Part shown: piece after piece, positions 1-54,761 of the stretch
Numbering within the stretch: the stretch's first letter is position 1
Layout: each line of letters opens with the position of its first letter
Origin: an uncultured virus (IMG/VR IMGVR_UViG_3300048832_000103)
Taxonomy: Duplodnaviria > Heunggongvirae > Uroviricota > Caudoviricetes
Direction: 5' to 3' (one strand)
IMG/VR virus record: IMGVR_UViG_3300048832_000103
DNA length: 64,000 nucleotides
Notes under the pieces: model-generated
What the model was told of the DNA's origin: nothing
Database searches by the model: none
Seen by the model: the letters and a program-made list of their open reading frames with translations, nothing else
Position numbers and translations under genes: made by a program

Positions 1-151
1 CTGTTGATGGTTGCCGGCTTCCGCCCAAGGAGTCTTTCGTGCGTTCAAGAGTTCGCCCAAGAGGATACCTCCATAGACCACGCCAGAGAGCAGACTCACC
101 GTGAGGAAAGCGTTTATCAATATAGATAGACCTCTCCCGCGAGACGCTAGT

Positions 152-757
152 CTACCCTTTAGCTTTCCCACCGTCAAGCTCAAAAAACCTTTTTTTGAAT
201 TCCATGTAGTCTCTTCTCGGGTTCGCATGACACGTGTCCAGTTCCATTAGTCGGACCTCGAGGCCCTGCCTCTGGCCGATGTACTTGTTCAAGAGCAATC
301 GTCCGTAGTTTCGGAAAGGCCCCTCGGGAGCCAAGCTCGTGATTTCTCGAGCCATCTGTAAGTCGTCGGCATCATTTATAATTTGCAACTGACCTTTATG
401 CATGGGAACGCAGTCATATCGACGCCATATCAACTTCTGCCATCGGGCTTCGTACTCGTCGAGGTCCACGCCGAGCTGCTTAAGGTAGCGCTTCACCGGC
501 CGCGTGACGTCGCCCACATAGGTCTCATGGGCATCGTGCAAGAGGGCGGCGAGACGGAGCTCGTCGGGGACCAGACGAGACACTTCCAACGAGTGACGAG
601 CGACCGAGATGTGGGTCGATAGGTGTCCGTTGAACCGTAGGATTCCCGCCAGACTCCATGCAATATCTTCTATATCAATGTCTTCTGATTTAGGATCACT
701 TAGATCAACCCAAGCACCAGAAGACACACCTAGCCAACAGGGCTCATTTGAACTCAT
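152..757 (-). CDS. HD-domain phosphohydrolase (YfdR/YfbR-like 5'-deoxynucleotidase)
   Basis: DIEDIAWSLA..RFNGH, SVARHS and LLHDAHETYVGDV.RPVK motifs typical of phage HD nucleotidases. Confidence 0.85.
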   Translation of the reverse strand: MSSNEPCWLGVSSGAWVDLSDPKSEDIDIEDIAWSLAGILRFNGHLSTHISVARHSLEVSRLVPDELRLAALLHDAHETYVGDVTRPVKRYLKQLGVDLDEYEARWQKLIWRRYDCVPMHKGQLQIINDADDLQMAREITSLAPEGPFRNYGRLLLNKYIGQRQGLEVRLMELDTCHANPRRDYMEFKKRFFELDGGKAKG

Positions 758-1233
758 TTAGAAATTCCCCATAGCATACCAAAGGTTATCGTTCCTGCCG
801 CAAGTATACCTATACCTCCCCACTTTAACCCATTTTTGATTTTTCGAATCCTTTCGGCACGAGCATATTCCTTCTGCTGTTCGCCTACCAAAGCCCGCAA
901 CCGGCTAACTTCTAAATTACTGGCTTCTAATTGGCTCGCTCTTATTTCGGATGTTTGACCTACAACAGTCAATTCAGCCCTAGTGGTATCTAGCAGGACA
1001 TTCAATTCGTGATTTACATAGTGAAAATGCTTAGCTACCTCTATCCAGATAACAATTTTTCTGAATTCCTCGGTAGGATAGCACTCACGCAACCCCGAGG
1101 GTGTTTTTATCGTGTACCCATCGGGTACTTCAGGCAGCTCGTCGGCCCTCAGGGACCACGTCAAGGCTATCAAAGCCCAGAAAATTAGCCCGACGAGGAG
1201 GTCTTTCAGAAAATTAGTCAGCGCTCTTTCCAT
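754..1233 (-). CDS. Membrane protein with N-terminal signal/TM, coiled coil and C-terminal TM (possibly spanin-like)
   Basis: Hydrophobic N-terminus LLVGLIFWALIALTWS and C-terminal GGIGILAAGTITFGMLWG; start moved to ATG at 1233. Confidence 0.5.
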   Translation of the reverse strand: MERALTNFLKDLLVGLIFWALIALTWSLRADELPEVPDGYTIKTPSGLRECYPTEEFRKIVIWIEVAKHFHYVNHELNVLLDTTRAELTVVGQTSEIRASQLEASNLEVSRLRALVGEQQKEYARAERIRKIKNGLKWGGIGILAAGTITFGMLWGISK

Positions 1234-1597
1234 ATAAACGATCTTTGAGTTCCTCGTGGGTAGCGTTAGCCACTGATTTCCGGGTCTGTTCGAAGTCGGC
1301 TCGGGCATCTTGAATCACCTTCTCGACAATAGCGGCCTTGTCCTTCAAGGCTTTTTGCTGTCCTTTCAATTGGGCGATGGATTTGTCGCAGGATTTATTT
1401 AGGCTGTCAAGTGGGGCGTTCTTCGCTCGCTCGATGTAGTTCTCGGTCAACCTGCTTGAATTCAACATCCACCACAACCCTGCCACGGTGAGAAGAGCAA
1501 TCCATGGAAGGATCAATAGGAGTATCACCCACCATTTTTTGTTACGGAATAGACTTGTGGGGTCATACAATATTTGGTCCCATACATTTTTTATCAT
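1214..1597 (-). CDS. Single-pass membrane coiled-coil protein (possibly Rz/i-spanin-like)
   Basis: TM segment WWVILLLILPWIALLTVAGLWW followed by a helical heptad region. Confidence 0.5.
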   Translation of the reverse strand: MIKNVWDQILYDPTSLFRNKKWWVILLLILPWIALLTVAGLWWMLNSSRLTENYIERAKNAPLDSLNKSCDKSIAQLKGQQKALKDKAAIVEKVIQDARADFEQTRKSVANATHEELKDRLYGKSAD

Positions 1598-1608
1598 TCT
1601 GGGAACTC

Positions 1609-1875
1609 CTATGCCTGGTGCCGCGTGTTTGCTGAATCTAAAACGACTGTGACCGGACTATCGTCTACAAGTTCACCTATTATATGCTCACGACACATTA
1701 CCCAAGAGCGCCTATCGTTAGAACTCTCCGCTCGAGAAGCAATATCGAACAGAGCGCACCACGTTCCACACTGCGCAGACCCGTCACCATAAGGACAACC
1801 AAGCTTCCGACCATCCTCGGCTACCAGGATCTTGGTGGTCTTGGTGTTCTTCCGAATTAGGCTAACCCTCTTCAC
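1609..1875 (-). CDS. Small Cys-containing hypothetical protein
   Basis: GTG start overlaps the cysH-like stop (GTGA); CP..C..WC..C pattern. Confidence 0.55.
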   Translation of the reverse strand: MKRVSLIRKNTKTTKILVAEDGRKLGCPYGDGSAQCGTWCALFDIASRAESSNDRRSWVMCREHIIGELVDDSPVTVVLDSANTRHQA

Positions 1876-2498
1876 GTTTTCACCGCATGGATTCCGCACT
1901 CTAGCCTCTCACCGGCCCAGCGGCCAGAGCGCTCATCGTCCGAGGTCGGCAGGCTCGTGCAAGGCTGGCACCCAATCGACCGGTATCCCTGGCTGTGCAG
2001 CGGTTGCACTGGTACGTCGTTATCTCGAATGTATTTCCAGCATTGCTCGCTTGTCCAGTTTAGCATCGGAGCCAAACGGATCTTGCCAAACTGGTCAGGC
2101 TCGATTTCCCTTGTGTCCTTTCTCGTCGAGGCCTGGTCCCACCGAAGAGCGGAAACCCATGCCTGATAAGGCTGTAGCGCGCACCACAGTGGAAGAACCT
2201 TGTGCTCGGTGCAGCACTCTTGCGTCGGCGGGAGGTGCGTGCTCTGCGGGGGAGGTCCGACCCAGTGCAGGTCCAGATCCCATTCCCGGCCCATGAGGTT
2301 GGCGAAGTCCACGGTTTCACTGAACAGCTTGCCAGTGTCGATGGAAATGACCGGGACGTGCTCCCAGACCTTGCGGGCATGATCAAGCAGAACCATCCCT
2401 GAGTAGCCCCACGCTGTGGTGAAGATGACCTTGTCGTTGTACATGTCACGGTAGAAACTCAAAGTCTCGCGCAACCTATCAGACTTCTCTGTCACCAA
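1872..2498 (-). CDS. cysH: APS/PAPS reductase (4Fe-4S APS-reductase type)
   Basis: IDTGKLFSET, ECC..HKV.PL, R.DQ..TR, P.LNWT, GYRSIGCQPCT, ERSGRW and C-terminal ECGIH. Confidence 0.92.
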   Translation of the reverse strand: MVTEKSDRLRETLSFYRDMYNDKVIFTTAWGYSGMVLLDHARKVWEHVPVISIDTGKLFSETVDFANLMGREWDLDLHWVGPPPQSTHLPPTQECCTEHKVLPLWCALQPYQAWVSALRWDQASTRKDTREIEPDQFGKIRLAPMLNWTSEQCWKYIRDNDVPVQPLHSQGYRSIGCQPCTSLPTSDDERSGRWAGERLECGIHAVKT

Positions 2499-3262
2499 GG
2501 TACTGGTCCTTTCAGCGCTCCGGTGAGGTTGATCACGGGAGGTCTCTCGGTCTCACCATATTTCTTAGTCCATCTCCACCATCCTGCAAGGCCTACCGCG
2601 GCCTCGAGGCCGGGAGCAGGCAAGCAGTTCACTAAGCTCTGTAGGTGCTCCAAGGCGCGGTAAATCTCCGATGCCGAGACCTCGATAGCCTCGGGGAGCT
2701 CGGGCGCGTCGGCCAGAGCAGGCGCCCAACGAGGGATGAGATCGGGCTCGGGGCGCACGGGAATGACCACGGTACTTCGAGCTGGCCAAACGGCTTTGAC
2801 CGCCGCGCAACCATATCCGCCGCCTGTGGCCTGGAAGTAATGATCTGGCGGGCTATCACGGTACATTTCATGGACTTGCTGTAATATCTCTCGAGCCATA
2901 ATCTGATGAGCAATCATCTTCAATTGGTTGTTGCTTCCAGCGAATAAGATAGTCCTTCCCTTATCAGACATCTCATACTCGTCCATAACCTGCTTTATGA
3001 CACGAATCCGGGGAGTCTTATCGTCCCATGTGTAAACTACAACATCTAAATCTTTGCATATACTAGTTATAGCCTCACCAGTGTTACCACTGGTTGCTAC
3101 AATAATCGTTTTCACACCCTGCAAAGCCGCAAAATGTTTCACAACCACAGCTTCGCGGTATTTAAAAGACCCCGTTGGGAGCATATAATCACATTTCAGA
3201 TAAACCATTCGGCCGCAACCGTCATCTGATAGGATGAGGGGACTTCTTATCATTTCTTCCAT
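2492..3262 (-). CDS. Fold-type II PLP enzyme, cysteate synthase/threonine synthase-like (compact, 256 aa)
   Basis: LKCDYMLPTGSFKYREA (PLP lysine), ATSGNTG, PDHYFQATGGG (resembles the cysteate synthase PDHYFQAVGSG) and INLTG. Confidence 0.8.
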   Translation of the reverse strand: MEEMIRSPLILSDDGCGRMVYLKCDYMLPTGSFKYREAVVVKHFAALQGVKTIIVATSGNTGEAITSICKDLDVVVYTWDDKTPRIRVIKQVMDEYEMSDKGRTILFAGSNNQLKMIAHQIMAREILQQVHEMYRDSPPDHYFQATGGGYGCAAVKAVWPARSTVVIPVRPEPDLIPRWAPALADAPELPEAIEVSASEIYRALEHLQSLVNCLPAPGLEAAVGLAGWWRWTKKYGETERPPVINLTGALKGPVPW

Positions 3263-4062
3263 ACAACACCTTTGAATTGCGTGCCGGGGTTATGATTGAT
3301 TTCTATAATCACAAATTTATTATTTTTATCAAATGTTCCATCGACGGACCAATTTTGATTTCTATAACGTTTAACCTTTGGGACTATCTCTTTGTTTATC
3401 TGCTCGACTACTTCAGGAATGCCCCCAAGCTTCTCCCCAAAAGGAGCGGTCTCAAGAGATTTTTCTTTGACTACTTTAGCCGTATGAGAATCAATTGATT
3501 TCAAATCAATATCTTCTTTACTTCGAATAACACCCTCTAAGTCGACCCATATGTATTTTCTGTCCTTCCAGCCAGAGTTAGAGATTCCTGAATGTTCAAA
3601 ATACAGTGGCGTTAGGCCTATAAAGCTCACTCGGTCGTGCCCAATAAGTCGGATAACCGGGGGGCATCTAATATCATCGGTGAACTTGTGTAGCCGTTCA
3701 TGTGGGTAAATCCATTCCTCGGCAAACCACGAACGTACAGCCATTAATTTTTTTGGAGTGTTTAGCTTTATCTTTCTTATCCTATTTAGTTTGACCCTTA
3801 GCTTGTTAGGTGCAATTAAATCTTTATCTGGAAACATTATGAAACCTTCAGAAGTCTTCTCTAGCAGAGCTATGCCGCTGCTTTGACGACCACTCTGAGG
3901 TTTCCACACGTATTCTCCCATAGGGGCGTTCACTAGAGCCCCTACCGTAGCATAAAACCGCCCAGGATTAATCAAGTTGTTAGGATAAGAAAAAGAGGTA
4001 TTCTCGCTAAGCCAAAGCTTAGTGAAAATCTTGTTCCAAAACATTTTGGCATTTATTAACAT
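3250..4062 (-). CDS. ATP-grasp ligase paralog 4 (ATPgrasp_ST / alpha-L-glutamate ligase-like)
   Basis: NKIFTK.WL...YP, YVWKP.SGRQSSGI, WFAEEWI.PHE and VDG.FD...IIEINHNPG. Confidence 0.8.
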   Translation of the reverse strand: MLINAKMFWNKIFTKLWLSENTSFSYPNNLINPGRFYATVGALVNAPMGEYVWKPQSGRQSSGIALLEKTSEGFIMFPDKDLIAPNKLRVKLNRIRKIKLNTPKKLMAVRSWFAEEWIYPHERLHKFTDDIRCPPVIRLIGHDRVSFIGLTPLYFEHSGISNSGWKDRKYIWVDLEGVIRSKEDIDLKSIDSHTAKVVKEKSLETAPFGEKLGGIPEVVEQINKEIVPKVKRYRNQNWSVDGTFDKNNKFVIIEINHNPGTQFKGVVWKK

Positions 4063-4890
4063 CTATTTCTTCTTCCAAGTGACTCCTAAAAATGGGGTTC
4101 CTATTGCAGAGTTAATTTCGATAATAACAAACCGATTATTCTTATCAAAGACTCCATCAACAGACCAGCACTTGTTATGAACTAGCTTCAATTTCGGACT
4201 AATTTCACTATTCACTTGATCGATGATTTCCTTAACGCCCTCAATTTTTTGGCCACACAAGTCCGTGTCAATACGCCTATCCACAACAGACTTTAGTGTT
4301 TTCTTGTCAGCACTAGACAGGTCCATTTCATCGGTGTGTCTTACGACACCATTAAAATCTAACCATAGATACTTCCGATGGTCCCAACCAAAGGAAGATA
4401 TGCCGACCTCGTTAAAGTATACTGGCGAAATCACAACAAAATGAACTTTACTGCGGCCGCAAATACGAATAACTGGCGGACAGCGCATGTCATCCGTAAA
4501 CGGTTTCAAGCGTTCGTGTGGCTTAATCCATTCCTCGGCAAACCACCTTCTATGACCTCGAATCTCTTTGGCCTCGGAAATAGTTAACCGCTTTATCCTA
4601 ATTAACTCTTCAATAGTGGCTTGCAAAGATAATACATCACTAGATGGAAATATCTTGTATCCGTCGGCAGTTTTATCCAGTAGAGCTACTCCCCAACCCT
4701 TGCGGCCAAAGCATGGCTTCCACACATATTCCCCAACGGGTAACTCCTCTAATTTATTGATAGAAACGTCGAAATAATCGAGCTCTATGCAGTTCTTAGG
4801 ATAAGCAAATGTAGTATTTTCGCTAAGCCATTGCTTAGTATAAATCTTGTTTGCAAACCTTTTAGGTATTATCCTATGATTAATAATCAT
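4063..4890 (-). CDS. ATP-grasp ligase paralog 3
   Basis: NKIYTK.WL, YVWKPCFGRKGWGV, WFAEEWI.PHE and VDGVFD..IEINSAIG; ATG overlaps the upstream stop. Confidence 0.8.
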   Translation of the reverse strand: MIINHRIIPKRFANKIYTKQWLSENTTFAYPKNCIELDYFDVSINKLEELPVGEYVWKPCFGRKGWGVALLDKTADGYKIFPSSDVLSLQATIEELIRIKRLTISEAKEIRGHRRWFAEEWIKPHERLKPFTDDMRCPPVIRICGRSKVHFVVISPVYFNEVGISSFGWDHRKYLWLDFNGVVRHTDEMDLSSADKKTLKSVVDRRIDTDLCGQKIEGVKEIIDQVNSEISPKLKLVHNKCWSVDGVFDKNNRFVIIEINSAIGTPFLGVTWKKK

Positions 4891-5729
4891 GGCCTTCCCG
4901 ACTTCCCTTTCCATGTAACACCCAAAAATCCTGGTGCGGCCATTTTATTAATCTCGACGACAATGAATCTGTCATCTTTATCAAAGATTCCATCAACAGA
5001 CCAGCTTCGGAACTTGTTAAATTTCAGCTTAGGGCTAATTTCTCGATTTATTTGGTTTATCAGTTCTCTAACACCTTCTATTTTTTCACCGTAAAAAGGT
5101 GTTTCTACACTTCTATCTGGTACAATTCGCTTAGTTAAAGCATTAGATTTTTTTATATTTAGCGCCTCTTCCGGTATAATCACGCCATCGAAATCGAGCC
5201 ATATATACTTGCGTTGTTTCCAACCCGTCGGCGCTATACCTGACAAATTGAGATACACTGGCGACAACGTCACAAAATGGACTCTATTCTGACCACAAAC
5301 GCGAATAAGTGGGGGCAACCTTTTGTCATCGGTGAATTTATGGAAGCGTTCATGTGGATAAATCCACTCTTCTGCAAACCATTTTTTAAATCTTCCGGCT
5401 TCACGGACCTCTGAAATAGATAATCTTTTTATCCTAGTCAGTTCACAAACTAATTCTTCCGAAGACATAATTTTGTCGGACGGGTATACTTTAAAACCTT
5501 CTACGTTTTTTTCTACTAGGGCTACACCCCAGCTTTTTCTACCATAGCAAGGCTTCCAAACATAGTTACCACAAGGTATATCAAGAAACCGGCTAGAAGC
5601 TTTACCGAAATCATCTAAATCTATAACATTCTTAGGATAGGCAAAGGTTGTATTAGCCTGCAACCATTCCTTGGTAAAAATCTTATCGTCGAATCTTGCA
5701 GTGTTGAGACCATCCTTATTTATTCGCAT
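4887..5729 (-). CDS. ATP-grasp ligase paralog 2
   Basis: DDKIFTK.WL, YVWKPCYGRKSWGV, WFAEEWI.PHE and VDGIFD..VEINKMAAPG. Confidence 0.8.
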   Translation of the reverse strand: MRINKDGLNTARFDDKIFTKEWLQANTTFAYPKNVIDLDDFGKASSRFLDIPCGNYVWKPCYGRKSWGVALVEKNVEGFKVYPSDKIMSSEELVCELTRIKRLSISEVREAGRFKKWFAEEWIYPHERFHKFTDDKRLPPLIRVCGQNRVHFVTLSPVYLNLSGIAPTGWKQRKYIWLDFDGVIIPEEALNIKKSNALTKRIVPDRSVETPFYGEKIEGVRELINQINREISPKLKFNKFRSWSVDGIFDKDDRFIVVEINKMAAPGFLGVTWKGKSGRP

Positions 5730-6628
5730 GGTCGCCTCAACCCGTCGTAAGTGTTTAGATGCTTCACGTTTGGAGCATGCTCAATCTCAATGCAAACGAA
5801 GTCGACCGAACCATCCTTGTTCTGCCGATAGACCCCATCGAACGCAAACAATGCGTGAGGGCTCATTGCCAAGCATATCTCATTTTTTATTGAGTCTAGG
5901 ATCTTGTCGAAGAACGGCAAGACCATCCCCGTAACGTCCTTCACCGTCCCGTAGTTCTCGATGGACCAAGGCAGGTCGTTCGGCACGTCTGGGCGGGTCT
6001 GTAGGAGCTCTCCCGCGTAGTTGAAACAGATGCGCCGAGCCCCACCCTGCAAGGTTCCCCGGCCTCGAGAGGCTTTCGTCGGTATGTGGATTTCACCGAA
6101 GTGGAAATCTCCTCGGCTCATGATGATTCTCACGAGCGGATTGAATGGGGCGTCATACTCAAGGGTTTTCAGTTCTTCGGGTGCAGGCGAGATGTACTCT
6201 TCCACAATCCACTTAAGAGCTGTCGGAGCTTTGGGGATGTCTGAAACAATATCAAGGAACAACTCGTTGGAATCAAGTAGGCGTAAATTAGCATCCCTGA
6301 ATCCAATATCATTTGGTTCCTTCCAGACCATACGAACTCCCCTAGAACGGGACAAGTTAACAGGCTTCACTATCACCCAACGTTCTGTAGGACAGCTCGT
6401 ACCTGTCAACCATGCACGCAACTCGGCCCAAGTAGCCGAGCAAACTAGCGTAGGAGGAATATTAAACGACGTATTGGCTAACAGCCAGTTCTTAGTCCAA
6501 ACCTTATTCCATGTAGACTTTAATATTTTCCTGTATGGTGCAGGTTCATTCTTTCTTCGCTCTGCACGCAACCGTTTAGGATTTATAACATGAGGCCTTT
6601 TCTGAGTCGTTACTACAACCTTACCCAT
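5720..6628 (-). CDS. ATP-grasp ligase paralog 1 (most similar to alpha-L-glutamate ligase-like proteins)
   Basis: NKVWTK.WL, IVKPVNLSRSRGV, WIVEEYI, PTKASRGRGTLQGGA (compare PT..S.GKANLHQGA) and IEIEHAP; start moved to 6628. Confidence 0.8.
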   Translation of the reverse strand: MGKVVVTTQKRPHVINPKRLRAERRKNEPAPYRKILKSTWNKVWTKNWLLANTSFNIPPTLVCSATWAELRAWLTGTSCPTERWVIVKPVNLSRSRGVRMVWKEPNDIGFRDANLRLLDSNELFLDIVSDIPKAPTALKWIVEEYISPAPEELKTLEYDAPFNPLVRIIMSRGDFHFGEIHIPTKASRGRGTLQGGARRICFNYAGELLQTRPDVPNDLPWSIENYGTVKDVTGMVLPFFDKILDSIKNEICLAMSPHALFAFDGVYRQNKDGSVDFVCIEIEHAPNVKHLNTYDGLRRPCE

Positions 6629-7010
6629 CTTTTTGCCTCTTTCGTGGTGTTTTAGAACGTACAATATGCCGAGGTGCTTTTTTACCTTCGGGGTCCGCTT
6701 TGGCTTGCCGAGCTTTCTTTGCTCTTGCCGCTCGCTCGAAAGGTCCAGTTCCATGTTCAGACATGAACTTGCCAGGGGAACTGGATAAGATTTGATTATC
6801 ACGCAACTCTGCTAACCCACAAAGGTCGCAAGAACTTCCAAGCAGGCGGTTTCCGCACTTCTCGCAGGCCTTGGTACCCATCCAACACACAAAACACAGA
6901 TCACCCACGTGAGTGTCTCTTATGGGCATCTTTGAGCGTTGACATTTCCTACACGCCCTTATTGTAAGGGGATAATGTCCCCAACTCTTACTTGTAAAGG
7001 TTGTGGTCAC
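6621..7010 (-). CDS. Multi-CxxC zinc-finger protein with basic tail
   Basis: CRKC, CFVC, CEKC and CDLC; overlaps both neighbouring genes. Confidence 0.6.
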   Translation of the reverse strand: MTTTFTSKSWGHYPLTIRACRKCQRSKMPIRDTHVGDLCFVCWMGTKACEKCGNRLLGSSCDLCGLAELRDNQILSSSPGKFMSEHGTGPFERAARAKKARQAKADPEGKKAPRHIVRSKTPRKRQKDG

Positions 7011-7278
7011 GATACTCTTTCAGCGCTACAAAGACGGTGTCAGCGACCTCCCGCATTACCACGCCCTTGGCGCTGTGCCAAAGCTGCGCGGTAATCTGCT
7101 CTTGTGAGCTGCCCAAGGCGCTCGAGATGAGGATTCTAAGTGCCGCCGATATATTAAGCGAGCCCCCCTCGTTTACGAGCCCATTCTTCTCAGCAAAGAC
7201 CTCGATTCGTTGGATTGTCTCGTTGTCCAGTCTAACTGCAAGTGCGCGTGTTTGCTCTTTATTCATGCAAATCCCCAT
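6988..7278 (-). CDS. Ribbon-helix-helix-like transcription regulator
   Basis: LAVRLD.ETIQRIE.FA...G..N.SAALR.LI pattern. Confidence 0.6.
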   Translation of the reverse strand: MGICMNKEQTRALAVRLDNETIQRIEVFAEKNGLVNEGGSLNISAALRILISSALGSSQEQITAQLWHSAKGVVMREVADTVFVALKEYRDHNLYK

Positions 7279-7326
7279 ATCACAATGTTGGAATGTTTAC
7301 AAGGCCAGAAAATGGTAAACCGCTTT

Positions 7327-9837
7327 TTATTTAGGGACGCGGAGATCAAGATGGTTGGGGCCTAGCTTGCCCTCGACCTCGAAGGCCATGTGATACGTCT
7401 TGCCGGTGATAGGCGAGGTCAGCTTCTTCGAGCAGCGCATCGAGCTCATGAGATCCTCGAGGGCCTGCTCGGCGTAGTCGACACTGACCTCGGCGCGAAG
7501 ATCGTCATGAAGCTGCATAATTGGCCATACTCTCGTGTGGTAGTCACCTTTCTCTTCCAATAATTGCATCCATCTGATTGTAGCAGTGTCTACAATGTCT
7601 GCCGCGCCGCCCTGAACCGGGTGGTTCGTGGCCTCGGTATCAGGCACACCCCCCAGGGGCCAGCGCCTTCGCCGGCCAAGCCAGGGCGTTCGGAGCTCAA
7701 AGGTCCGGTTTGCGATTTCAGTGACGTAGGCAGAATACTCATTGACATTTTGGTATTTTGCTCTCTTACGGGCCTGCATGACCTGGACCTCTTTGAAAGT
7801 GATCCCAGGAACATCCTCGCGCACGTTCTCATACAAAGTCTGTGGTCCAGCTCGATAGATGTCACCGAAGGTCACAGGCTTGGAGTTCGTCCGCAAGAGC
7901 TTGCGTTGATCGGTGCTCGCTCTATGCCAGGTCTCACCGAAATAAACCTCAGCAAACATAGAGTGTACGTCAGTCCCATTGATGAAGGCCTCGATGAGAT
8001 CCTCTTGGCCGGCGAGCAGCACCGATATGCGAAGCTCGAGCGCTGCGTAGTCCGCTGAGATGATGCAGCGCCCTGGTGCTGGCACGAGCATACGTCGCAT
8101 GGACCTCGGCCAGTTCTGCACAGCGGGCTTTGTGCCGAAGCGTCCTGAAGGCGTCGCGGTCTTGTTCCAGCGCGTGTGAATGCGCCCGTCCGAGCCGACC
8201 TCTTGACCCAAACCGTCGATGTAGGTCGAGAACAATTTCGTTTTGGTTCGATAGGCCTGCAAGAGCTCGACGAACGGATGATCTCTGAACTCAAAAAGGC
8301 TGGCAGCATCGGTCGAAAGCTGGCCACTTTTCGTGACCTTTTTGGGTACTAAATTGAACTGCTCAACGAGCACCTTCTGAAGTTGTGGGGGACTGTTCGG
8401 ATTGAAGTCGCGACTCCCCACGAGAGACCATATATTCTCTTTCAGGCATGCGATGCTCTCGCTGAATTCCTTATGCAGCACAAGGCGCGCATCCTCGTCG
8501 ACTCCGAGTCCGACCTTCTCCCAGTCCATAGCGTAGCGCGTGATAATCCGATCTGTCTCGTACACATTCAGAACGTTCTCACGACGCATCTCTTGCCGCA
8601 ATTTGTCATGCAGAAGGATCGTGTTCGCGGTGTCCGCTCCGTTGTAGTAGAGCAGCGCGGGGATGTCCTCGTCGCTCACGTTGATGAACCGCTTATCGTA
8701 GTATTCCTTCCAGGGCTCGACCGGGAAAAATTGAGTCGCCACAGCTTGCAAGTCGTGAGGTGTTTTTGGGTAGATCGCGTGGTGCTCGAGGAACGTGTCT
8801 TCGATCTTCCCAGCAATCTGGATTTCCATCATTCGCTCGATGATCGGGACGTCGAAAGCCATGTTGTGGAACACCCACGTTCGCTCAGGATCTTGGAAGG
8901 CGATCTTGAGTGCATTCCAAGAGGCTTGCCAATCTTCCGTGGTGAAGTAAGAGCGCAACCCTGGGCATGGAATGGACACCGCGAGGGGCTTCTCTTCGCC
9001 TGTCTCGTCATCATAGATGAGACGCGCCAAACCTACTGTCGTGATCCCGCATTCGCGCACGTCCAGTCCATCTGTCTCGAGGTCCACGGCTACGGGTTCT
9101 GAAGGTAACTCAAGCACTCGTTGAACAGCTTCAAGGGTGAAGGCCTCGACCACGGGCTGGCGCAACGCAAGCTTCTCGTTGGCCAAGAGGTGCGCCTTCT
9201 CGACGTCGGCAACGAACAGATCCAACCACACTTGCTTCGCGGGTGAGCGCAGCATAGCCGCTGGATGGATAGTCGACACGACGAGCGTTCCCCACGTCTC
9301 TTCGGCGGTGGCCTCGGTCTGTGCTGGCGGCTCCACTATCTTTGGGTCAAAGTCAACAGGAAACTGTGCAGTCTCGGACGTCAAGACCTCGAGGGGATAC
9401 TTGATACTAAAGTCTTGCCAAGTAGTAGCTCCTCGGAACTTCTCAACGCCTTTGAGGCCCGTCGTCGACTGCAATGCAATACCACCCAAAGTCAAGATCG
9501 CCCGCGGCTTCACTTCGACAATGTTGGCCTCGAGCTCCCCCTGACAACACTCTCGAGCAACCTTCATTGCGGCATCCGATGGTTTAGTCCCGCCGCTGAA
9601 GTTGCATCGAATCGCATTCGTGATATGGGTCGCCTCAATTGACGTGTGCAGATGGTCTAAAACCGTCTTCAAGATGTGTCCCGAGGCCCCCACAAAGGGA
9701 ACTCCCCGCTTGACCTCTTCGCGGCCCGGGCTCTCCCCGATGACCAGCAAGTTGTTCCACGCGACGAGGGGGTGCTTGTCCATGACTTCCAATCCATTCT
9801 CGAAGAATGGGCATGTAGTCTGATTACATGGTTTCAT
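7327..9837 (-). CDS. polA: Family A DNA polymerase with N-terminal UDG family-4-like domain (SPO1-like architecture) and 3'-5' exonuclease
   Basis: GESPG.EE...G.PFVG.SG, TNAIRC and HPA (UDG4); DLETDGL and FHNMAFD (exonuclease); DYAALELR, K..TFG.IY and HDD (polymerase motifs A, B, C). Confidence 0.95.
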   Translation of the reverse strand: MKPCNQTTCPFFENGLEVMDKHPLVAWNNLLVIGESPGREEVKRGVPFVGASGHILKTVLDHLHTSIEATHITNAIRCNFSGGTKPSDAAMKVARECCQGELEANIVEVKPRAILTLGGIALQSTTGLKGVEKFRGATTWQDFSIKYPLEVLTSETAQFPVDFDPKIVEPPAQTEATAEETWGTLVVSTIHPAAMLRSPAKQVWLDLFVADVEKAHLLANEKLALRQPVVEAFTLEAVQRVLELPSEPVAVDLETDGLDVRECGITTVGLARLIYDDETGEEKPLAVSIPCPGLRSYFTTEDWQASWNALKIAFQDPERTWVFHNMAFDVPIIERMMEIQIAGKIEDTFLEHHAIYPKTPHDLQAVATQFFPVEPWKEYYDKRFINVSDEDIPALLYYNGADTANTILLHDKLRQEMRRENVLNVYETDRIITRYAMDWEKVGLGVDEDARLVLHKEFSESIACLKENIWSLVGSRDFNPNSPPQLQKVLVEQFNLVPKKVTKSGQLSTDAASLFEFRDHPFVELLQAYRTKTKLFSTYIDGLGQEVGSDGRIHTRWNKTATPSGRFGTKPAVQNWPRSMRRMLVPAPGRCIISADYAALELRISVLLAGQEDLIEAFINGTDVHSMFAEVYFGETWHRASTDQRKLLRTNSKPVTFGDIYRAGPQTLYENVREDVPGITFKEVQVMQARKRAKYQNVNEYSAYVTEIANRTFELRTPWLGRRRRWPLGGVPDTEATNHPVQGGAADIVDTATIRWMQLLEEKGDYHTRVWPIMQLHDDLRAEVSVDYAEQALEDLMSSMRCSKKLTSPITGKTYHMAFEVEGKLGPNHLDLRVPK

Positions 9838-9882
9838 TGTTCTTCTCCCTTGGGGGGCGAGTGACTAGAAATTGTCTAAAAC

Positions 9883-9980
9883 TGGGTGGCACGAGCAGGA
9901 TTCGAACCTTCCACGACGGCACTACAGCCAAGGAGAAGAGAGACAACCGGCTTGTCCCGTCGCATCACCAGATCGTGCCA
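9883..9980 (-). ncRNA. tRNA-like RNA resembling the tmRNA tRNA-like domain without a coding region
   Basis: Minus strand: TGGCACGA/TCGTGCCA acceptor stem plus C-CCA, T arm GAAGG-TTCGAAT-CCTGC, stemless D region TCTGGTGATG and helix CGACGG/CCGTCG; no canonical anticodon arm. Confidence 0.6.
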
Positions 9981-9983
9981 GAA

Positions 9984-10178
9984 GGAGCCTTGAACCGTTG
10001 CAGGTTAGTTGGGCAACTGGCGCATCTTGTGGAAGAGATACAGCCTGCAACGACAAGGGCTCCATAAAGCGCCAGTGGCCAATTTAATGTCCAGCGAACT
10101 GGCAACCTGGACAACGGAAGGATTAAGGGCACGGTCCTTCCATGGCTCAAGCAAGGCGTGACTCTAAGCTTGAGCCAT
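9984..10178 (-). ncRNA. Structured intergenic RNA (three hairpins plus a large pseudoknot)
   Basis: Inverted repeats 10142-10152/10168-10178, 10116-10123/10134-10141, 10088-10094/10107-10113 and 9984-10063; loop 10009-10023 is complementary to 10069-10082. Confidence 0.5.
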
Positions 10179-10186
10179 TCTCGCCG

Positions 10187-10747
10187 CTAACGCCCTCGCC
10201 GCATAACTGTGGGCGCTGGAGCCGGTCTTGGTTGTGGAGCCGTCGTGGGCTGTGCCACGGCAGGCGCCGCCGCTACAGGAGCCGCTACGGCTGCTACCGG
10301 GGGCTCTTCCGCAGGAGCGTGCGAAATGGGAATGATGTTCGAAAGGCTTACCTTCGGATTGCCATCCGCACCAGTCTTGATCTTCACGTCCGCTGAGAAG
10401 GTCGTGTCGATGAGATTTTGCGTGTCCGCGTCCTCGCCGGCCTCGAGCAGATCATACCGACCCCATGCCTTGAGATAGCCGACCGTCTGCTCGATAGGCC
10501 TGCCCCACTTGCCAAGCTTGTCGCTCAGGCCGAGGTACTGACTGTGAACCTTGGTCCCTGGGTCATCGCCGCTGATTTGGACGCACTTCGCAGTGACGTA
10601 GCGCTCGCCGGCATGCTCCCCTTGAGAGTTTACGCCCTCGGTGATACCGGTAATCTGGAATTCCTGCCGGCCTGGGTCTGGTGGAATCCAGCCAGCTCCC
10701 GGAACCTTACCCTCAAACTCGTCCATCTTGATACCAAAAACGCCCAT
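10187..10747 (-). CDS. Probable phage ssDNA-binding protein (DUF669-like)
   Basis: Beta-rich OB-like pattern with a Pro/Ala tail; located downstream of the Sak4-like ATPase and nuclease. Confidence 0.6.
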   Translation of the reverse strand: MGVFGIKMDEFEGKVPGAGWIPPDPGRQEFQITGITEGVNSQGEHAGERYVTAKCVQISGDDPGTKVHSQYLGLSDKLGKWGRPIEQTVGYLKAWGRYDLLEAGEDADTQNLIDTTFSADVKIKTGADGNPKVSLSNIIPISHAPAEEPPVAAVAAPVAAAPAVAQPTTAPQPRPAPAPTVMRRGR

Positions 10748-10833
10748 TGTGTGTCTCTCCTTGTCAGTGATTGGTTTAGGTTTGATCCTTCTGGCATACC
10801 CAGTATCAGGGTGTCAACCAAAAAATACACCCG

Positions 10834-11436
10834 TTAGGATTTTCGAAGACTGTTCAGAATACTAAAAGTTATCCTTGCTGTAGCGCGAGCATCCTCTAAG
10901 GCATCATGAGCATGTAACAGTTCAATTTTCATATTTTTTGCCGTTGTTTCCAGCTTGTAATCTAATGGCTCTATGTTACGTATTGCAAAGTATAACATTG
11001 CAAATTGCATCGCGTCCCATACACGCATGTCCATTGGCAAGAAAATATTATAAAACCTGCAAACGTTCAGAATGAACGGATGATCGAACTTAGCCGCGTT
11101 GTAGCCACAACCTTGCGCGACGTAGTAACCTTTACCACTCTTGGCTATGCGCTTCTGATCGGTGAACCGTCCAACCCAACCAGCAAACCTATTCAGGGCT
11201 AAGCCTCTGTTAACGCCTTCCAAGCCCCATATTTCTGGGTCATAACAATTAGTAAATCCAGACTCTTTCATGCTATTTAGAGAAGCTACTCCCTTTTCAG
11301 TAGGTAAAAGCTTCACCTCGAAGGAAGAAATCTCCCTTCCTGTCAAACTATCCATACAAATAGCACCTATTTGTATGATTTCATCTTTGGAAATGTCTAC
11401 ACCCGTCGTTTCAAGGTCAAAAATTACTACGTTCAT
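10834..11436 (-). CDS. DEDDh 3'-5' exonuclease (DnaQ-like)
   Basis: IFDLETTG, GYN..KFD and HDALED motifs. Confidence 0.92.
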   Translation of the reverse strand: MNVVIFDLETTGVDISKDEIIQIGAICMDSLTGREISSFEVKLLPTEKGVASLNSMKESGFTNCYDPEIWGLEGVNRGLALNRFAGWVGRFTDQKRIAKSGKGYYVAQGCGYNAAKFDHPFILNVCRFYNIFLPMDMRVWDAMQFAMLYFAIRNIEPLDYKLETTAKNMKIELLHAHDALEDARATARITFSILNSLRKS

Positions 11437-11444
11437 TTCTACAC

Positions 11445-11861
11445 CTAGTCTATCAGTTGTGCTGTTTTTATTCCGACCTGATTTAACATTTCAATAGAAT
11501 CTACCATCCTATATAAATCTTTATAGAACAGTTTCTTAACACCACCCATATTTATAATTCTTTTTGCGCACATAACACACTGATTCACAGTTACAAACAC
11601 AGCCTTTGGAATATCTCTATGACAAGTACAGTTTATTATTGCATTCTCTTCAGAATGCAAACATCCACAATTTCCTGCCTCATGTCTGTCACAATCATGC
11701 TGCATACCGGAAGCGTTACCATTGTAACCTATAGCATACACATAGCGATAATCTAATGATGTTATAACAGTTCCTACTTGCAGACGCTGGCAAGTAGACC
11801 GTTGTGATAATGAAATAGCTAAATCCATATAAATCTTTTCAAATGAAGGTCTTATACGCAT
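11445..11861 (-). CDS. dCMP deaminase (ComEB-like)
   Basis: RSTC.RLQVG, GYNG, HSEENAI and C..CAK.IIN.G motifs. Confidence 0.92.
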   Translation of the reverse strand: MRIRPSFEKIYMDLAISLSQRSTCQRLQVGTVITSLDYRYVYAIGYNGNASGMQHDCDRHEAGNCGCLHSEENAIINCTCHRDIPKAVFVTVNQCVMCAKRIINMGGVKKLFYKDLYRMVDSIEMLNQVGIKTAQLID

Positions 11862-12583
11862 TACCTACCCTCAATTTTGGCGCATGATTCGAGGCCCAGT
11901 ATTTCCGCAAAGTCATCGTAATGGGGCGAAGGCCCTATGCGAGCGAATCCGGCGTTGTTTGCGTGGGCTCGAGCGAGGCGCATACGAGCTGGCCACGTGC
12001 CAAATTTGCGGCCGTGAACGTACCACTCGAGGCCCTTGCTGCCCATGTCCTTGACGTCACTATACAATAACAGGTCTGCATTCCCTGGAAAGAAATTCTT
12101 GGAGTCGCCCTTAAGCGTGAAGGTGCGCTCCTTGTCTGAATGGCAAATCCAGATCGAATGAATAGGCCATTTTTTGATGGTTGTCATGAGATGCACAAAG
12201 AAGCTCGTAAACTTGCCCCAGTGTTCCCACTCGAGCTTGTTGACTTTGAATTCCTTCTTTATCTCATCCTCGAATAGAAGCTGTGTCGTCGTGAGATTGT
12301 CCAGCACGATCGTCTTGCAAGCTACCTCGCCACTCTCAATGGCTTTGCCGAGGGCTTCGAGCTGGACCTTCAAGTCGTCCATGCTTCTGAAGAAGACCAC
12401 TGGAAGATTGAACTCGGCCAAGGTGCGCATCTCTCCCCGGGCGATGGTAGGCACCAGGAACACTGGGTGCGGCCAAGTTCCGGCGAAGTGCGTCTTGCCG
12501 GCGCCGTTCTCACCGTACAGCAGAACGTTGTACGTTGCATCGGACAGCAGATCCGACGTGCTGGACAATCGCAAATTACCCAT
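11861..12583 (-). CDS. AAA_24 / Sak4-like P-loop ATPase (recombinase)
   Basis: LLYGENGAGKT (Walker A), TIVLDNLT (Walker B) and ICH. Confidence 0.85.
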   Translation of the reverse strand: MGNLRLSSTSDLLSDATYNVLLYGENGAGKTHFAGTWPHPVFLVPTIARGEMRTLAEFNLPVVFFRSMDDLKVQLEALGKAIESGEVACKTIVLDNLTTTQLLFEDEIKKEFKVNKLEWEHWGKFTSFFVHLMTTIKKWPIHSIWICHSDKERTFTLKGDSKNFFPGNADLLLYSDVKDMGSKGLEWYVHGRKFGTWPARMRLARAHANNAGFARIGPSPHYDDFAEILGLESCAKIEGR

Positions 12584-13479
12584 TAGAACTCACTCCGATC
12601 CTTCTTCCGCAAGCCGTCCATCGAGTCTCTCAAGCACATGCCCATGTACTCACACGTCCGGTTCCACATGACGCAATTGTGCATGCGCTGGGGCCATTTC
12701 CCGAAATGGGAGCACTCTTCCAGTTCCCAGGAAATTTTCTTCATGGATTTTTCCCAGGCTTTGAGCATCTCATCGGGAATCACTACCTCTTCTTGATAAA
12801 TCATGACCTCGCGTTCATGCTTTACGATCTGGTCAACCATGAAGGAACGCAAGTCACCTAGATCACACTTTTTCCAGAGCCAAACCTGCCCCAGAAATTG
12901 GGGGTTCAACTTGTAGCTGTCGAGCAGTACGGTAGACCTTCTCGCCGCGGTCTTGTGCTCGCAAATTGTCGCCTGACCCTTTACTTGAATGACCGCATCG
13001 AGACGCGCCGAGTAGTGGAAGGGCTTCTTCACTTCGAGGGCGAGCTCGACGTGCAAAATGTCTGACTCCGTTATCTTGAGCACGCCCCCTGGACCCCAGA
13101 AGCGCGCCCATGCCGATAGCAGTCGACGCGCCTCGTTGGCAGTCACAGGCGCCACGGTAGAAGCCAGGTCGATGACATACCAAAGCGAAGCCCAGAAGGC
13201 TTCATCGCCATCCTGCCACGCAAGCAGAGCTTGGGCAATGGCTTCGTGCACCAGTCCGCCGAGCTCAAGCGCAGGGGAGAGCTCGACCGTGGTCAATCGC
13301 TTCACGAACTGGTAGAAATACCGCTTCGGGCAGCGAACGAACTCGGCCCACTTGGAGTTTCCCATGGGCGAAGGCCCACCGGCCAAATCTTCTTTTCGAA
13401 AAGCAGTTTGCCAGCTCGGCTCTTGCGCGAGCAGTCCGCCCTTGACGTCCACGTTTGAAAAGTCGACTCCAAATTTCAT
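12583..13479 (-). CDS. PD-(D/E)XK nuclease (Cas4/RecB-like phage exonuclease)
   Basis: CPKRYFY..., G.LVH, RLD...EHKT, Q..G..W and C-terminal C.....C.Y...C. Confidence 0.85.
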   Translation of the reverse strand: MKFGVDFSNVDVKGGLLAQEPSWQTAFRKEDLAGGPSPMGNSKWAEFVRCPKRYFYQFVKRLTTVELSPALELGGLVHEAIAQALLAWQDGDEAFWASLWYVIDLASTVAPVTANEARRLLSAWARFWGPGGVLKITESDILHVELALEVKKPFHYSARLDAVIQVKGQATICEHKTAARRSTVLLDSYKLNPQFLGQVWLWKKCDLGDLRSFMVDQIVKHEREVMIYQEEVVIPDEMLKAWEKSMKKISWELEECSHFGKWPQRMHNCVMWNRTCEYMGMCLRDSMDGLRKKDRSEF

Positions 13480-40893: not shown

Positions 40894-41568
40894 ATGAGTG
40901 AGCGCACAGAGAAGCTTGCGTGGGGTGCGGTCCTGCTGAGCATCATCGGGGCCGGCATCTTCGGATGGTGGCGCCAGAAGAAGGCGAGCATCGGCGGTTA
41001 CGACGACGTCAAGGACATCAAGCCGATGGTCATTCATGCGCCAAGTTACACCTATCCGACCGGTCCCGCTCTGAGCGCGGAAGAGAAGCCGAAGACTCGG
41101 AAACGCCCGGTGAAGCGCAAATGTGATCCGGTTGAGATTGTGCAAGAGTCGAAGAGCAACACACAGATCCTCGCGTGCCGAGGTGAACCTCTCGGACGAG
41201 TGCAGAGCGCTCGAGACGCCTATGATTTCGTTCGCGGCCAATCGCAGCTTTTGCAAGAAGAGATGATCGTGTTGGCCATGAACTCGAGGAATGATATCAT
41301 GGCGACCTCGCTGGTCCATCGAGGAGCTGTGAACGAGGTCCATGTGAATCCCATGGACGTGTTCCGTACCCCGGTTATCTACGGGGCGCCGCGAATGATT
41401 CTGGTCCACAACCATCCTTCGGGCGCTCCCGCGCCGAGCCCGAGTGATGTGGCGATGACTCGGAAGATGAAAGGCCTTGGGGATGAAATGGGGATAGCCC
41501 TGCTGGACCATATCATCGTGGGCAAGGATGACTTCGCGAGCCTTCGAGACATGGGGATTTTGCAGTGA
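40894..41568 (+). CDS. RadC-like JAB-domain protein with N-terminal TM anchor
   Basis: QEE..VL..N..N, ILVHNHPSG...PS.SD...T and LLDHIIVG; N-terminal LAWGAVLLSIIGAGIFGWW. Confidence 0.9.
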   Translation: MSERTEKLAWGAVLLSIIGAGIFGWWRQKKASIGGYDDVKDIKPMVIHAPSYTYPTGPALSAEEKPKTRKRPVKRKCDPVEIVQESKSNTQILACRGEPLGRVQSARDAYDFVRGQSQLLQEEMIVLAMNSRNDIMATSLVHRGAVNEVHVNPMDVFRTPVIYGAPRMILVHNHPSGAPAPSPSDVAMTRKMKGLGDEMGIALLDHIIVGKDDFASLRDMGILQ

Positions 41569-48221: not shown

Positions 48222-48944
48222 TTATAAAATAGCTAGCAGTTCGCAGAAAATTCCACAGTCATCGAGTATTGGTTTTGAATGGCGCCCCTCATTAGGATCT
48301 AGCTCATCGAGGTATGTTCCTTTTATACACGAATGACCTATTTTCTTTTCTAGTTCCGCCCTGCTAGCAAAAATTTCTGGAAAATCCACTCTGATATGAT
48401 TCCAGTAACCTTTGCCCCCCTTCACGCATCCAACGCAATTGTTATTTGAGTATCCTATATCGTACATGGCAGGTCTTTTAATGTTCGAAGCTGCTAGAAT
48501 CTTATGCGCCTGTTCTTTTGATACTTGCTGTTCTACAAGGGGAAATACGTGATCTTGTTCTGGCATAGAGTCTTGTAGCCGTTGGCATCGATCAGATTCG
48601 TTGTAGTCCATTCCCCAAACATAGGTTAGTTTTTCATTTACCGGTTGCTCATATTCCCATTGCTTTCGCACCTTGCGTTTGAGAAGTCTCGTGCAGGCGG
48701 CGCCGCCAATGCCATTTATGTACCCCTTACCGCCAGCGGCAAGACAAGCATTTTCAACAGTCTTTAAGGGAGATTGCAGTATTTCAATAGGTTTTTCAAA
48801 CCAGGCTTCGCAATCTTTGACAAAGCGCAAGGTGTCTGGGTGCTGGTCTTCTATGTGAGTGTATAGAATTTTGTCTATTTTGGCGATTGCCAGCTTTGTG
48901 GCCACGGCACTGGACACCCCGGCAGAAAACCACGAGACTATCAT
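48222..48944 (-). CDS. Phage PAPS-reductase-family (PP-loop) protein
   Basis: SWFSAGVSSA, HPD..RF, CT..LK, FPL, P.MY..GY.NNNC.GCVKGG.GYW and CG.FC. Confidence 0.8.
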   Translation of the reverse strand: MIVSWFSAGVSSAVATKLAIAKIDKILYTHIEDQHPDTLRFVKDCEAWFEKPIEILQSPLKTVENACLAAGGKGYINGIGGAACTRLLKRKVRKQWEYEQPVNEKLTYVWGMDYNESDRCQRLQDSMPEQDHVFPLVEQQVSKEQAHKILAASNIKRPAMYDIGYSNNNCVGCVKGGKGYWNHIRVDFPEIFASRAELEKKIGHSCIKGTYLDELDPNEGRHSKPILDDCGIFCELLAIL

Positions 48945-53978: not shown

Positions 53979-54761
53979 TTAGTCAATTAAAAACCCATAC
54001 TTTCTTGCCAGTCTAGGCCCATCACTACTATATAGCGCTTTCCAAAGAAGGCGAACACTATTACCACCAAACTGAACGATATGGAATTTACTTTTACGTG
54101 TTAAACTGCCAACTTCCCGAAACGTTCGCCAGCACCAGTCCCGAAATCCGTCAATTACAGTGGGATGCTTTGCTATTTTGGCGCATAAACCGCCATTTTT
54201 CCTTCTATGAAAACACCCATCTCCATCAAACAAACCCCGATAATAATGACACTCTAAATCCTCTCTCAAACATATCCGCTGTGCCTTATATGTTTTCCGT
54301 GGGACAACCCCCCACAACAAAAGCTGACTAGCGATATCGGGTGCCGTTACGCGAAGCGATATCATTTCTGATACTAATCCAGATTTTCGACGACAACTTC
54401 TCGGTATAACTGGCCCAGTATATTGTATAAACGATGCTAATCCGTCAACAAGCTCTCTGTCCTTACTATGCAATTCGAGAGATACTAACCCTCTATCAGA
54501 CACGCTTCCATCCGCCGCAAGAAGACCTGCCCAGTACGCTGTTACAGGTTCGAAATGTTCAAACGCATCATGCCTATAAGTGTATTTTCTATTTCTATCA
54601 GAAATTGTTCTTCTTTCAACACCAGCTTTTTCTAACCATTTCCTGATAGTCTCGCCACTTACGCCAAAATCTCGCGCAATCCTTGAACAATGCTCTCCAC
54701 GCTCATACCTTTGTATGATTTCTTGTACGTTAGTAAGCTCAAACTCGGACGACGAAATCAT
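53979..54761 (-). CDS. Free-standing LAGLIDADG homing endonuclease with N-terminal HTH
   Basis: AYWAGLLAADGSV and YYRGLFDGDGCF; IARDFGVSGETIRKWL. Confidence 0.9.
   Translation of the reverse strand: MISSSEFELTNVQEIIQRYERGEHCSRIARDFGVSGETIRKWLEKAGVERRTISDRNRKYTYRHDAFEHFEPVTAYWAGLLAADGSVSDRGLVSLELHSKDRELVDGLASFIQYTGPVIPRSCRRKSGLVSEMISLRVTAPDIASQLLLWGVVPRKTYKAQRICLREDLECHYYRGLFDGDGCFHRRKNGGLCAKIAKHPTVIDGFRDWCWRTFREVGSLTRKSKFHIVQFGGNSVRLLWKALYSSDGPRLARKYGFLID

Follow-up and report, generated by a model that had tools for sequence, protein, structure and literature searches.

A viral gene cassette with an iron-sulfur CysH, a miniature cysteate-synthase-like enzyme and four divergent ATP-grasp ligases: a candidate pathway to a sulfonated amide

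The usual reading of viral cysH genes is that they generically boost the sulfur assimilation of the host, and the question raised by the uncultured virus IMG/VR IMGVR_UViG_3300048832_000103 (Caudoviricetes) is whether its cysH gene belongs to a pathway of the virus itself. The analysed stretch of 64,000 nucleotides (the window) shows a cassette of about 5.7 kb (1609-7278), directly downstream of the DNA polymerase gene polA, containing genes for four putative ATP-grasp ligases (AG1 to AG4), a small pyridoxal 5'-phosphate (PLP) enzyme resembling cysteate synthase, and CysH, which here resembles the opening step of a pathway private to the virus. A preliminary description of this DNA had proposed that the virus makes a sulfonated amino acid and ligates it onto a target; the analysis supports this in part. 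The reading tentatively favoured here, drawn from sequence comparison, is a virus-encoded pathway in which host adenosine 5'-phosphosulfate (APS) or its 3'-phosphorylated form (PAPS) would yield sulfite, sulfite would yield cysteate or a close analogue, and this product would be joined to an acceptor by ATP-dependent amide ligation.

All genes of the cassette are on the minus strand, as is every gene between 17067 and 152. In the order of transcription, the six main genes encode AG1 (5720-6628, with an open frame to 6802; 302 aa from MGKVV), AG2 (4887-5729; 280 aa), AG3 (4063-4914; 283 aa), AG4 (3250-4062; 270 aa), the PLP enzyme (2492-3262; 256 aa) and CysH (1872-2498; 208 aa); two small genes precede them and one follows. 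The adjacent or overlapping arrangement after polA given in the preliminary description agrees with this order and with the junctions, which from 7278 to 1609 overlap by 23, 8, 10, 28, 0, 13, 7 and 28 nt: seven of the eight are overlapping and one, AG3/AG4, is abutting. The true start of AG1 is probably at 6628 (MGKVV), as in its orthologues, and it overlaps the stop codon of the upstream gene. The cassette had also been called an operon; co-direction and overlaps, from which that label comes, make one transcription unit plausible. The sequence contains 10 terminator-like sites, against 10.2 expected from shuffled sequence.

CysH is the member of the cassette with the firmest family assignment scores: PF01507 gives 119.4 bits, and NF002537 gives 173.2 bits over residues 11-206, above its equivalog cut-off of 154. 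Its translation contains ECC (94-96), GCQPC (176-180) and ECGIH (200-204), so that the CC..CxxC motifs reported earlier are present; we take these cysteines to be the iron-sulfur (Fe-S) ligand pattern of Fe-S APS/PAPS reductases. The three motifs are also found in the homologue of a distant viral locus, L179. Viral relatives form 16 clusters of 204-209 aa with 56-87% identity to the window CysH, and cellular relatives have about 230-245 aa and at most 45% identity; by sequence, the viral proteins are a short lineage of their own, separate from the cellular enzymes. Like the cysH genes that are common as viral auxiliary metabolic genes (10.1101/2021.01.05.425418), the window gene encodes a bona fide assimilatory sulfonucleotide reductase in a virus; unlike them, it overlaps, and is co-inherited with, the gene of a cysteate-synthase-like enzyme. 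The window also contains a second, divergent PAPS_reduct-domain protein of 240 aa (48222-48944, minus strand; PF01507, 26.6 bits), near the integrase region and far from the cassette, which is probably of the common phage "PAPS reductase-like" type and not a true CysH.

The PLP enzyme is a minimal fold-type-II enzyme (PF00291, 63.7 bits against a cut-off of 35) carrying the motifs SFKYREA and PDHYFQATGGG. Its viral family contains 11 clusters with identity down to 40%, all of which share the Schiff-base Lys34, S58-G-N-T61 and G147/G149/G151. Since all 11 members have 247-256 aa, the small size is conserved rather than the result of truncation. The preliminary description had likened both motifs to those of cysteate synthase, and the comparison with cellular enzymes bears this out. 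A degenerate DNA pattern for the loop [HY]YFQA[TV]G[GS]GxG, scanned over species-representative genomes, is found in at least 120 stretches, against roughly six expected by a rough estimate. Among the matches listed, most belong to Alistipes/Rikenellaceae, Marinilabiliales, Methanosarcinales, Methanoregulaceae, Spirochaetota and Nitrospirota; the motif is in frame in an open reading frame (ORF) of at least 100 aa in 86 of 120, all 86 of which read YFQAVGSG[TA]G, and uncut ORFs have about 420-550 aa. ThrC-type cysteate synthase belongs to the coenzyme M pathway in Methanosarcinales and to the sulfonolipid pathway in Alistipes and relatives. A reference set was formed by the PF00291 matches from eight loop-motif genomes (44 ORFs, named with NCBIfam), and its five cysteate-synthase candidates all score 460-617 bits with TIGR03844. 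The signature [ST]FKxxE[AS] after the PLP lysine is present in 24/24 cysteate synthases and 11/11 viral enzymes, and in none of 38 other PLP references: seven ThrC, 12 CysK/M, six TrpB, five TrpB-like, two IlvA, two BhcB-like and four unnamed. The viral loop reads HYFQATG[GS]GYG (VYFQ in one member), and none of the 38 has an FQA loop either; the seven ThrC references also lack E-A at +3/+4. A phmmer search of the Protein Data Bank (PDB) with the single PLP sequence shows the cysteate synthase 9k3c first (E 2e-4), and the alignment pairs both SFK..EA and PD.YFQA.G.G.G. In profile comparisons with hhalign, the viral family scores 103.2 with cysteate synthase (93.7 with seven sequences), 95.7 with ThrC, 80.7 with IlvA/BhcB, 69.8 with CysK/M, 30 with TrpB and 24 with TrpB-like proteins. 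The threonine synthase model TIGR00260 stays under its cut-off (35.7 against 167.1 bits), without an SFKD(R/L)G-type motif in the enzyme, and the CysK/CysM models give 15.6-25.1 bits against cut-offs of 344-394. A tblastn search against phage records gives one weak match (27.5%).

In a quick tree of 73 rows, the viral enzymes and the cysteate synthases are together with a Shimodaira-Hasegawa-like approximate likelihood ratio test (SH-aLRT) value of 84, within a group that includes ThrC. In a careful maximum-likelihood tree of 41 rows (LG+C20 PMSF), viral enzymes plus cysteate synthases are split from ThrC, IlvA/BhcB and CysK/M at 99/95, and CysK/M forms a clade of its own at 100/100. When the 25 motif columns of both blocks are removed, the split of viral enzymes plus cysteate synthases still has a support of 76. 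In the approximately unbiased (AU) test, a grouping of the viral enzymes with CysK/M is marginally rejected (p-AU 0.02). The viral enzyme shares with ThrC-type cysteate synthase (TIGR03844, 9k3c) the fold-type-II PLP architecture, SFKxxEA, YFQAxGxG, SxGNT and a C-terminal N(L/I)TG strand, and the two are sister groups in the best trees; it differs in its 256 aa against about 430 aa, in having neither the N-terminal domain nor the insert of those enzymes, and in its very long branch. Our reading of these sequences is that the PLP enzyme would be a miniaturised offshoot of the ThrC/cysteate-synthase lineage sharing the active-site signatures of cysteate synthase, rather than a demonstrated member.

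AG1 to AG4 are, on the combined evidence of paralogy, conserved residues, scores of their relatives and a structural model, predicted to be real but very divergent ATPgrasp_ST relatives, that is, ATP-grasp enzymes. The four ATP-grasp ligases of the preliminary description are upheld in this sense, although the window proteins themselves stay below the Pfam cut-off: PF14397 (ATPgrasp_ST; gathering score 31.4) gives 13.7 bits with AG4, 17.9 with AG3 and 14.9 with AG2, and no match with AG1. AG3 also shows a match of 19 bits to rimK_fam, below the cut-off, and AG4 weak matches to ATPgrasp_YheCD and ATPgrasp_ST. AG2-4 are about 50% identical among themselves (AG2 and AG4, 51% and 50% to AG3, respectively), and AG1 is 24-25% identical to them, its BLASTP match to AG3 having an E of 5e-08 at 24% identity. 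K66, E127, E128, R150, D253 and E266 are invariant in the alignment, and presumably have nucleotide-binding and Mg-binding roles; the Mg motif is IEIN (ExN) in AG2-4 and IEIEH in AG1. When 15 of the 24 matches of an exhaustive profile search were scanned with Pfam (fragments and near-copies being left out), 13 of these distant relatives match PF14397 and four are above its cut-off (33.3, 32.5, 43.6 and 96.6 bits), the first value being that of P0033, an AG1 orthologue. The AlphaFold2 (AF2) model of AG3, with a predicted local distance difference test (pLDDT) value of 74, shows an ATP-grasp fold without the N-terminal pre-ATP-grasp domain. In Foldseek it matches Ddl, ArgX/LysX, BacD, L-amino-acid ligases, tubulin tyrosine ligase, cyanophycin synthetase and PsnB with a probability of 1.00 and template-modelling (TM) scores of 0.3-0.47; all the matched enzymes are carboxylate-amine ligases. 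AG1-4 are like the ATPgrasp_ST and RimK/LysX/Ddl ligases in fold and in the conserved Lys, Glu-Glu, Arg and Asp...Glu-x-Asn, and unlike them in their scores below the Pfam cut-off, their rarity and their occurrence as three to four tandem paralogues. The family has 24 representatives among 1.84 billion proteins in the exhaustive profile search and 16 matches in a word-indexed search, and tblastn with AG3 finds nothing in 50,697 phage records. A search of viral contigs for the context of distant relatives, with P0036 and P0033 as queries, found no locus. Two other distant relatives, P0037 (281 aa) and P0038 (275 aa), are each recorded on a single 2,647-nt contig, which suggests tandem ATP-grasp pairs outside the viral group studied.

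The preliminary description had asked for co-occurrence of the three families in viral databases, which is found in full in close relatives and in part beyond them. Nine further loci were compared with the window, with PLP enzymes 81-88% identical in all but L179. The gene order is the same wherever the DNA of the locus reaches, and AG1 is accompanied by two or three of the types AG2-4: AG2 is missing from L002, and AG4 is missing from L171, L173 and L174. The paralogue types remain distinct lineages, and a genome has three to four copies. The PLP and CysH genes are adjacent in the eight related loci that span the junction (8/8), including L179, where the PLP enzyme shows 42% and CysH 58% identity. 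In addition, one contig record (three contigs, the longest of 62,951 nt) is common to a PLP homologue of 47% and a CysH homologue of 59% identity, which suggests a third, independent instance of the pair. Across these sequences, the PLP-CysH pair is well linked and co-inherited at deep divergence, and this fits CysH as a dedicated source of sulfite. The link of the ligases to the pair is one of adjacency only, namely tight packing in one closely related viral group, one genus; a locus with a 60%-identical PolA, L182, ends at the polymerase, and blastn of the cassette against a phage collection gives no match. Among cells, a CysH homologue is located within 6 kb of a cysteate synthase in two of the 80 loci fetched with flanks, both from Spirochaetota.

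In those two loci (L025, 4315-5037; L064, 2578-3492), the CysH homologue is a few kb from a TIGR03844-type cysteate synthase, and the L025 pair is divergently transcribed; such pairs may be a precedent in cells for a sulfite supply of this dedicated kind.

CysH releases sulfite, and cysteate synthase consumes sulfite with phosphoserine. Sulfite is the sole direct link between product and substrate of CysH and the PLP enzyme, which favours a pathway via cysteate or an analogue; cysteine synthesis would require a sulfite reductase, which is not recognised in the window, and this favours the cysteate route as well. In the favoured pathway, the Fe-S CysH would reduce host APS or PAPS to free sulfite, by a chemistry established for its family. 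The PLP enzyme may then use this sulfite for a beta-replacement on O-phospho-L-serine or a comparable activated serine, giving L-cysteate or a sulfonated analogue. Finally, to judge from the adjacency of their genes, AG1 and two to three of AG2-4 may each convert a carboxylate to an acyl phosphate and couple it with an amine; in successive steps, they could produce a short amide or oligomer that contains cysteate, or attach the product to a carboxylate-bearing acceptor. A small molecule, a peptide or a protein C-terminus is a more likely acceptor than DNA, and the virion, glycan, lipid or DNA targets named in the preliminary description are speculation. Its claim that CysH is a dedicated sulfite supply and not a metabolic auxiliary fits the co-inheritance of the pair. 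A more specific scheme is unlikely: a temperate virus would turn the activated sulfate of its host into L-cysteate with two enzymes of its own, and three to four dedicated ATP-grasp ligases would build an oligo-sulfonated peptide or sulfonate-tag a protein tail, a surface polymer or nucleic acid. If it were true, the oligo-sulfonate product would be a strong polyanion made by a virus, without a described counterpart in cells or viruses.

Several results weigh against a cysteate pathway, and some of them speak for separate auxiliary genes instead, with CysH boosting host sulfate assimilation, the PLP enzyme being ThrC-like or sulfhydrylase-like (threonine, cysteine or homocysteine) and the ATP-grasps being unrelated, an explanation judged rather unlikely. 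The best NCBIfam match of the PLP enzyme is thrC (35.7 bits), followed by a dehydratase (34.3) and the cysteate synthase model TIGR03844, which with 26.7 bits over residues 27-82 is far from its cut-off of 324.9 and gives 15.9 bits with the G001 copy; all these matches are confined to the first 80-90 residues. The enzyme lacks the N-terminal domain of about 100 aa of cysteate synthases, the alignment beginning at about column 118 of their profile, and the 7-residue insert before the lysine (PEKGAxM-type). The AU test leaves a grouping with ThrC open (p 0.19, difference in log-likelihood 8.3), and the stems of the viral enzymes (2.2) and of cysteate synthase (1.2) are both long, so that attraction between them is possible. 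The match of the loop with cysteate synthases is partly by construction, because the references came from loop-motif genomes. With the PLP family profile, aspartate and serine racemases are on top in the PDB; the ranking differs from that of the single sequence, and PDB sequence searches alone are thus not decisive. Foldseek with the PLP model (pLDDT 72) singles out no subfamily. The earlier claim that this enzyme is nearer to cysteate synthase than to threonine synthase is thus carried by the motifs and by the 99/95 tree, and is opposed by the TIGR03844 score, the AU test and the missing domain. As for the ligases, their co-occurrence with PLP-CysH is limited to viruses 81-88% identical in the PLP enzyme, in which the whole region is syntenic, and the DNA of L179 ends upstream of the PLP gene; the ligase profile finds no family member in 2,116 ORFs at the 120 cellular cysteate-synthase stretches among the matches listed. 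The GC content of the genes also differs sharply within the cassette (about 40% in AG2-4, 49% in AG1, 52% in the PLP enzyme and 58% in CysH, the last with a GC3 of 72%; window 1-12600), which fits separate acquisitions of ligases, PLP enzyme and CysH. Among the 62 different window proteins scanned with Pfam, none is recognised for sulfate activation or the supply of phosphoserine, and no acceptor is obvious. That cysH is a common viral auxiliary gene (10.1101/2021.01.05.425418; phrog_424) fits separate genes as well. This explanation, however, leaves SFKxxEA and YFQAxGxG, found in 0/7 ThrC and 0/12 CysK/M references, without a counterpart, and the sulfhydrylase version meets the rejected CysK/M grouping and, for cysteine, the intermediate sulfite reductase that is not recognised in the window. 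It also has to face the PLP-CysH adjacency, kept down to 42% and 58% identity, and the virus-specific short lineages of both enzymes.

Two further explanations concern the acceptor. The ligases might add ordinary amino acids to a protein or ribosomal peptide in the style of RimK, LysX or the graspetide enzymes, for example to a host protein or to the product of the gene preceding AG1, with the PLP enzyme and CysH supplying a sulfur amino acid; this is considered improbable. The product of the gene in question (6621-7010, minus strand) has 129 aa and four CxxC pairs, and its translation is coupled to that of AG1. Tubulin tyrosine ligase, the graspetide ligase PsnB and ArgX/LysX in complex with the zinc-ribbon carrier LysW are among the structural neighbours of AG3, while Ddl and the L-amino-acid ligases have equal scores in the same fold search. 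LysW has an acidic C-terminal Glu tail, and the tail of S6 is likewise acidic. The arrangement is thus like the LysW-LysX amino-group carrier system in that a gene for a small multi-Cys protein is beside an ATP-grasp ligase gene, with ArgX/LysX among the best structural matches; it is unlike it in that the tail of the CxxC protein is basic and ends in KDG (4/4 orthologues), and no sequence similarity to LysW was found. The CxxC protein gained no family assignment in the searches, and a complex prediction of AG1 with it gave no answer (score 0.00), which is neither for nor against binding. Hypermodification of viral DNA or nucleotides, with an amino-acid-derived group on a base, is very improbable. 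PLP enzymes are part of known phage clusters for thymidine hypermodification, and the cassette is in the replication module directly after PolA, with genes for a dCMP deaminase (11445-11861) and an HD phosphohydrolase (152-757) nearby. However, a thymidylate-synthase-like hydroxymethylase, a kinase, a TET/JBP enzyme and a glycosyltransferase are not recognised among the 62 different window proteins scanned with Pfam, and the lack of a recognised base-activating enzyme makes DNA modification less likely; moreover, ATP-grasp ligases require a carboxylate, which normal bases lack, and the Pfam model nearest to the ligase family is associated with polysaccharides.

The cysteate pathway favoured here would be without a described viral counterpart, as the preliminary description had supposed, and nothing comparable was found in print. 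In the literature, "cysteate" together with "ATP-grasp" was not found, nor was "ATPgrasp_ST"; the titles of the matches listed for "cysteate synthase" include no virus or phage, and "cysteate" with "bacteriophage" is found only in what is, by its title, the genome report of a methanogenic archaeon. The word "cysteate" is absent from the main text of the survey of viral organosulfur genes (10.1101/2021.01.05.425418). What is new is the miniature PLP enzyme and the way in which parts from known superfamilies are combined. Should the PLP enzyme make cysteate, no smaller cysteate synthase would be known and none from a virus would precede it; it would also offer a useful minimal scaffold on which to study the switch of ThrC-type chemistry. 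Ligases that use this product would let the virus make a sulfonated amide or oligomer, with possible roles in surface alteration, protein tagging or counter-defence.

Three small proteins flank the six main genes. The first ORF of the cassette (6988-7278, minus strand; 96 aa) is 95-96% conserved in relatives; the ribbon-helix-helix regulator label that it had been given has no support from hidden Markov models, as none of Pfam, NCBIfam or PHROG matches it even at E <= 10, and its strand-helix-helix pattern is an impression from the sequence. The CxxC protein shows invariant Cys in its orthologues; the putative zinc-finger label proposed earlier depends solely on its four CxxC pairs, with no family match beside them. 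The last, p96 (1609-1899, minus strand), is a Cys-rich ORF of 96 aa with four Cys conserved in the alignment of seven orthologues and no family match. For the CxxC protein and p96, there is no usable Pfam match at E <= 10, and the ESM Atlas search gives only weak leads, with scores below 0.9. p96 is missing after CysH in L179, and is therefore probably not essential to the PLP-CysH pair. After p96, the window contains genes for two proteins of 127 and 184 aa (754-1597, minus strand), conserved in all relatives and with hydrophobic stretches resembling membrane anchors; in L179, a p127-like protein is directly after CysH.

The viral origin of the window is supported by IMG/VR records, one of 42 kb being 100% identical over the matched parts and another of 65.6 kb being closely related, and by its predicted phage replication and integrase genes. 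The replication module contains a PolA fused to a uracil-DNA glycosylase (UDG), an RNase T-like exonuclease, a Sak4-like ATPase, a PD-(D/E)XK nuclease, a SNF2 helicase, a primase and Gp157, and an integrase gene is also encoded. PolA (7327-9837, minus strand) shows UDG, 3'-5' exonuclease and DNA_pol_A domains, the N-terminal domain of the uracil-DNA-glycosylase superfamily scoring 57.9 bits. The mosaic of GC content in window 1-12600 extends to the dCMP deaminase (35%, GC3 27%), the exonuclease (41%) and p186 (61%). ARAGORN calls a tRNA-Asn at 44980-45053 (plus strand), within a 715-aa open frame of the same strand (43744-45891); the call is doubtful because the Rfam scan of the whole window finds no family, and thus no tRNA, at gathering score. 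The window also encodes a LAGLIDADG-like protein with an N-terminal helix-turn-helix (53979-54761, minus strand) and a RadC-like JAB-domain protein (40894-41568, plus strand; 111 bits).

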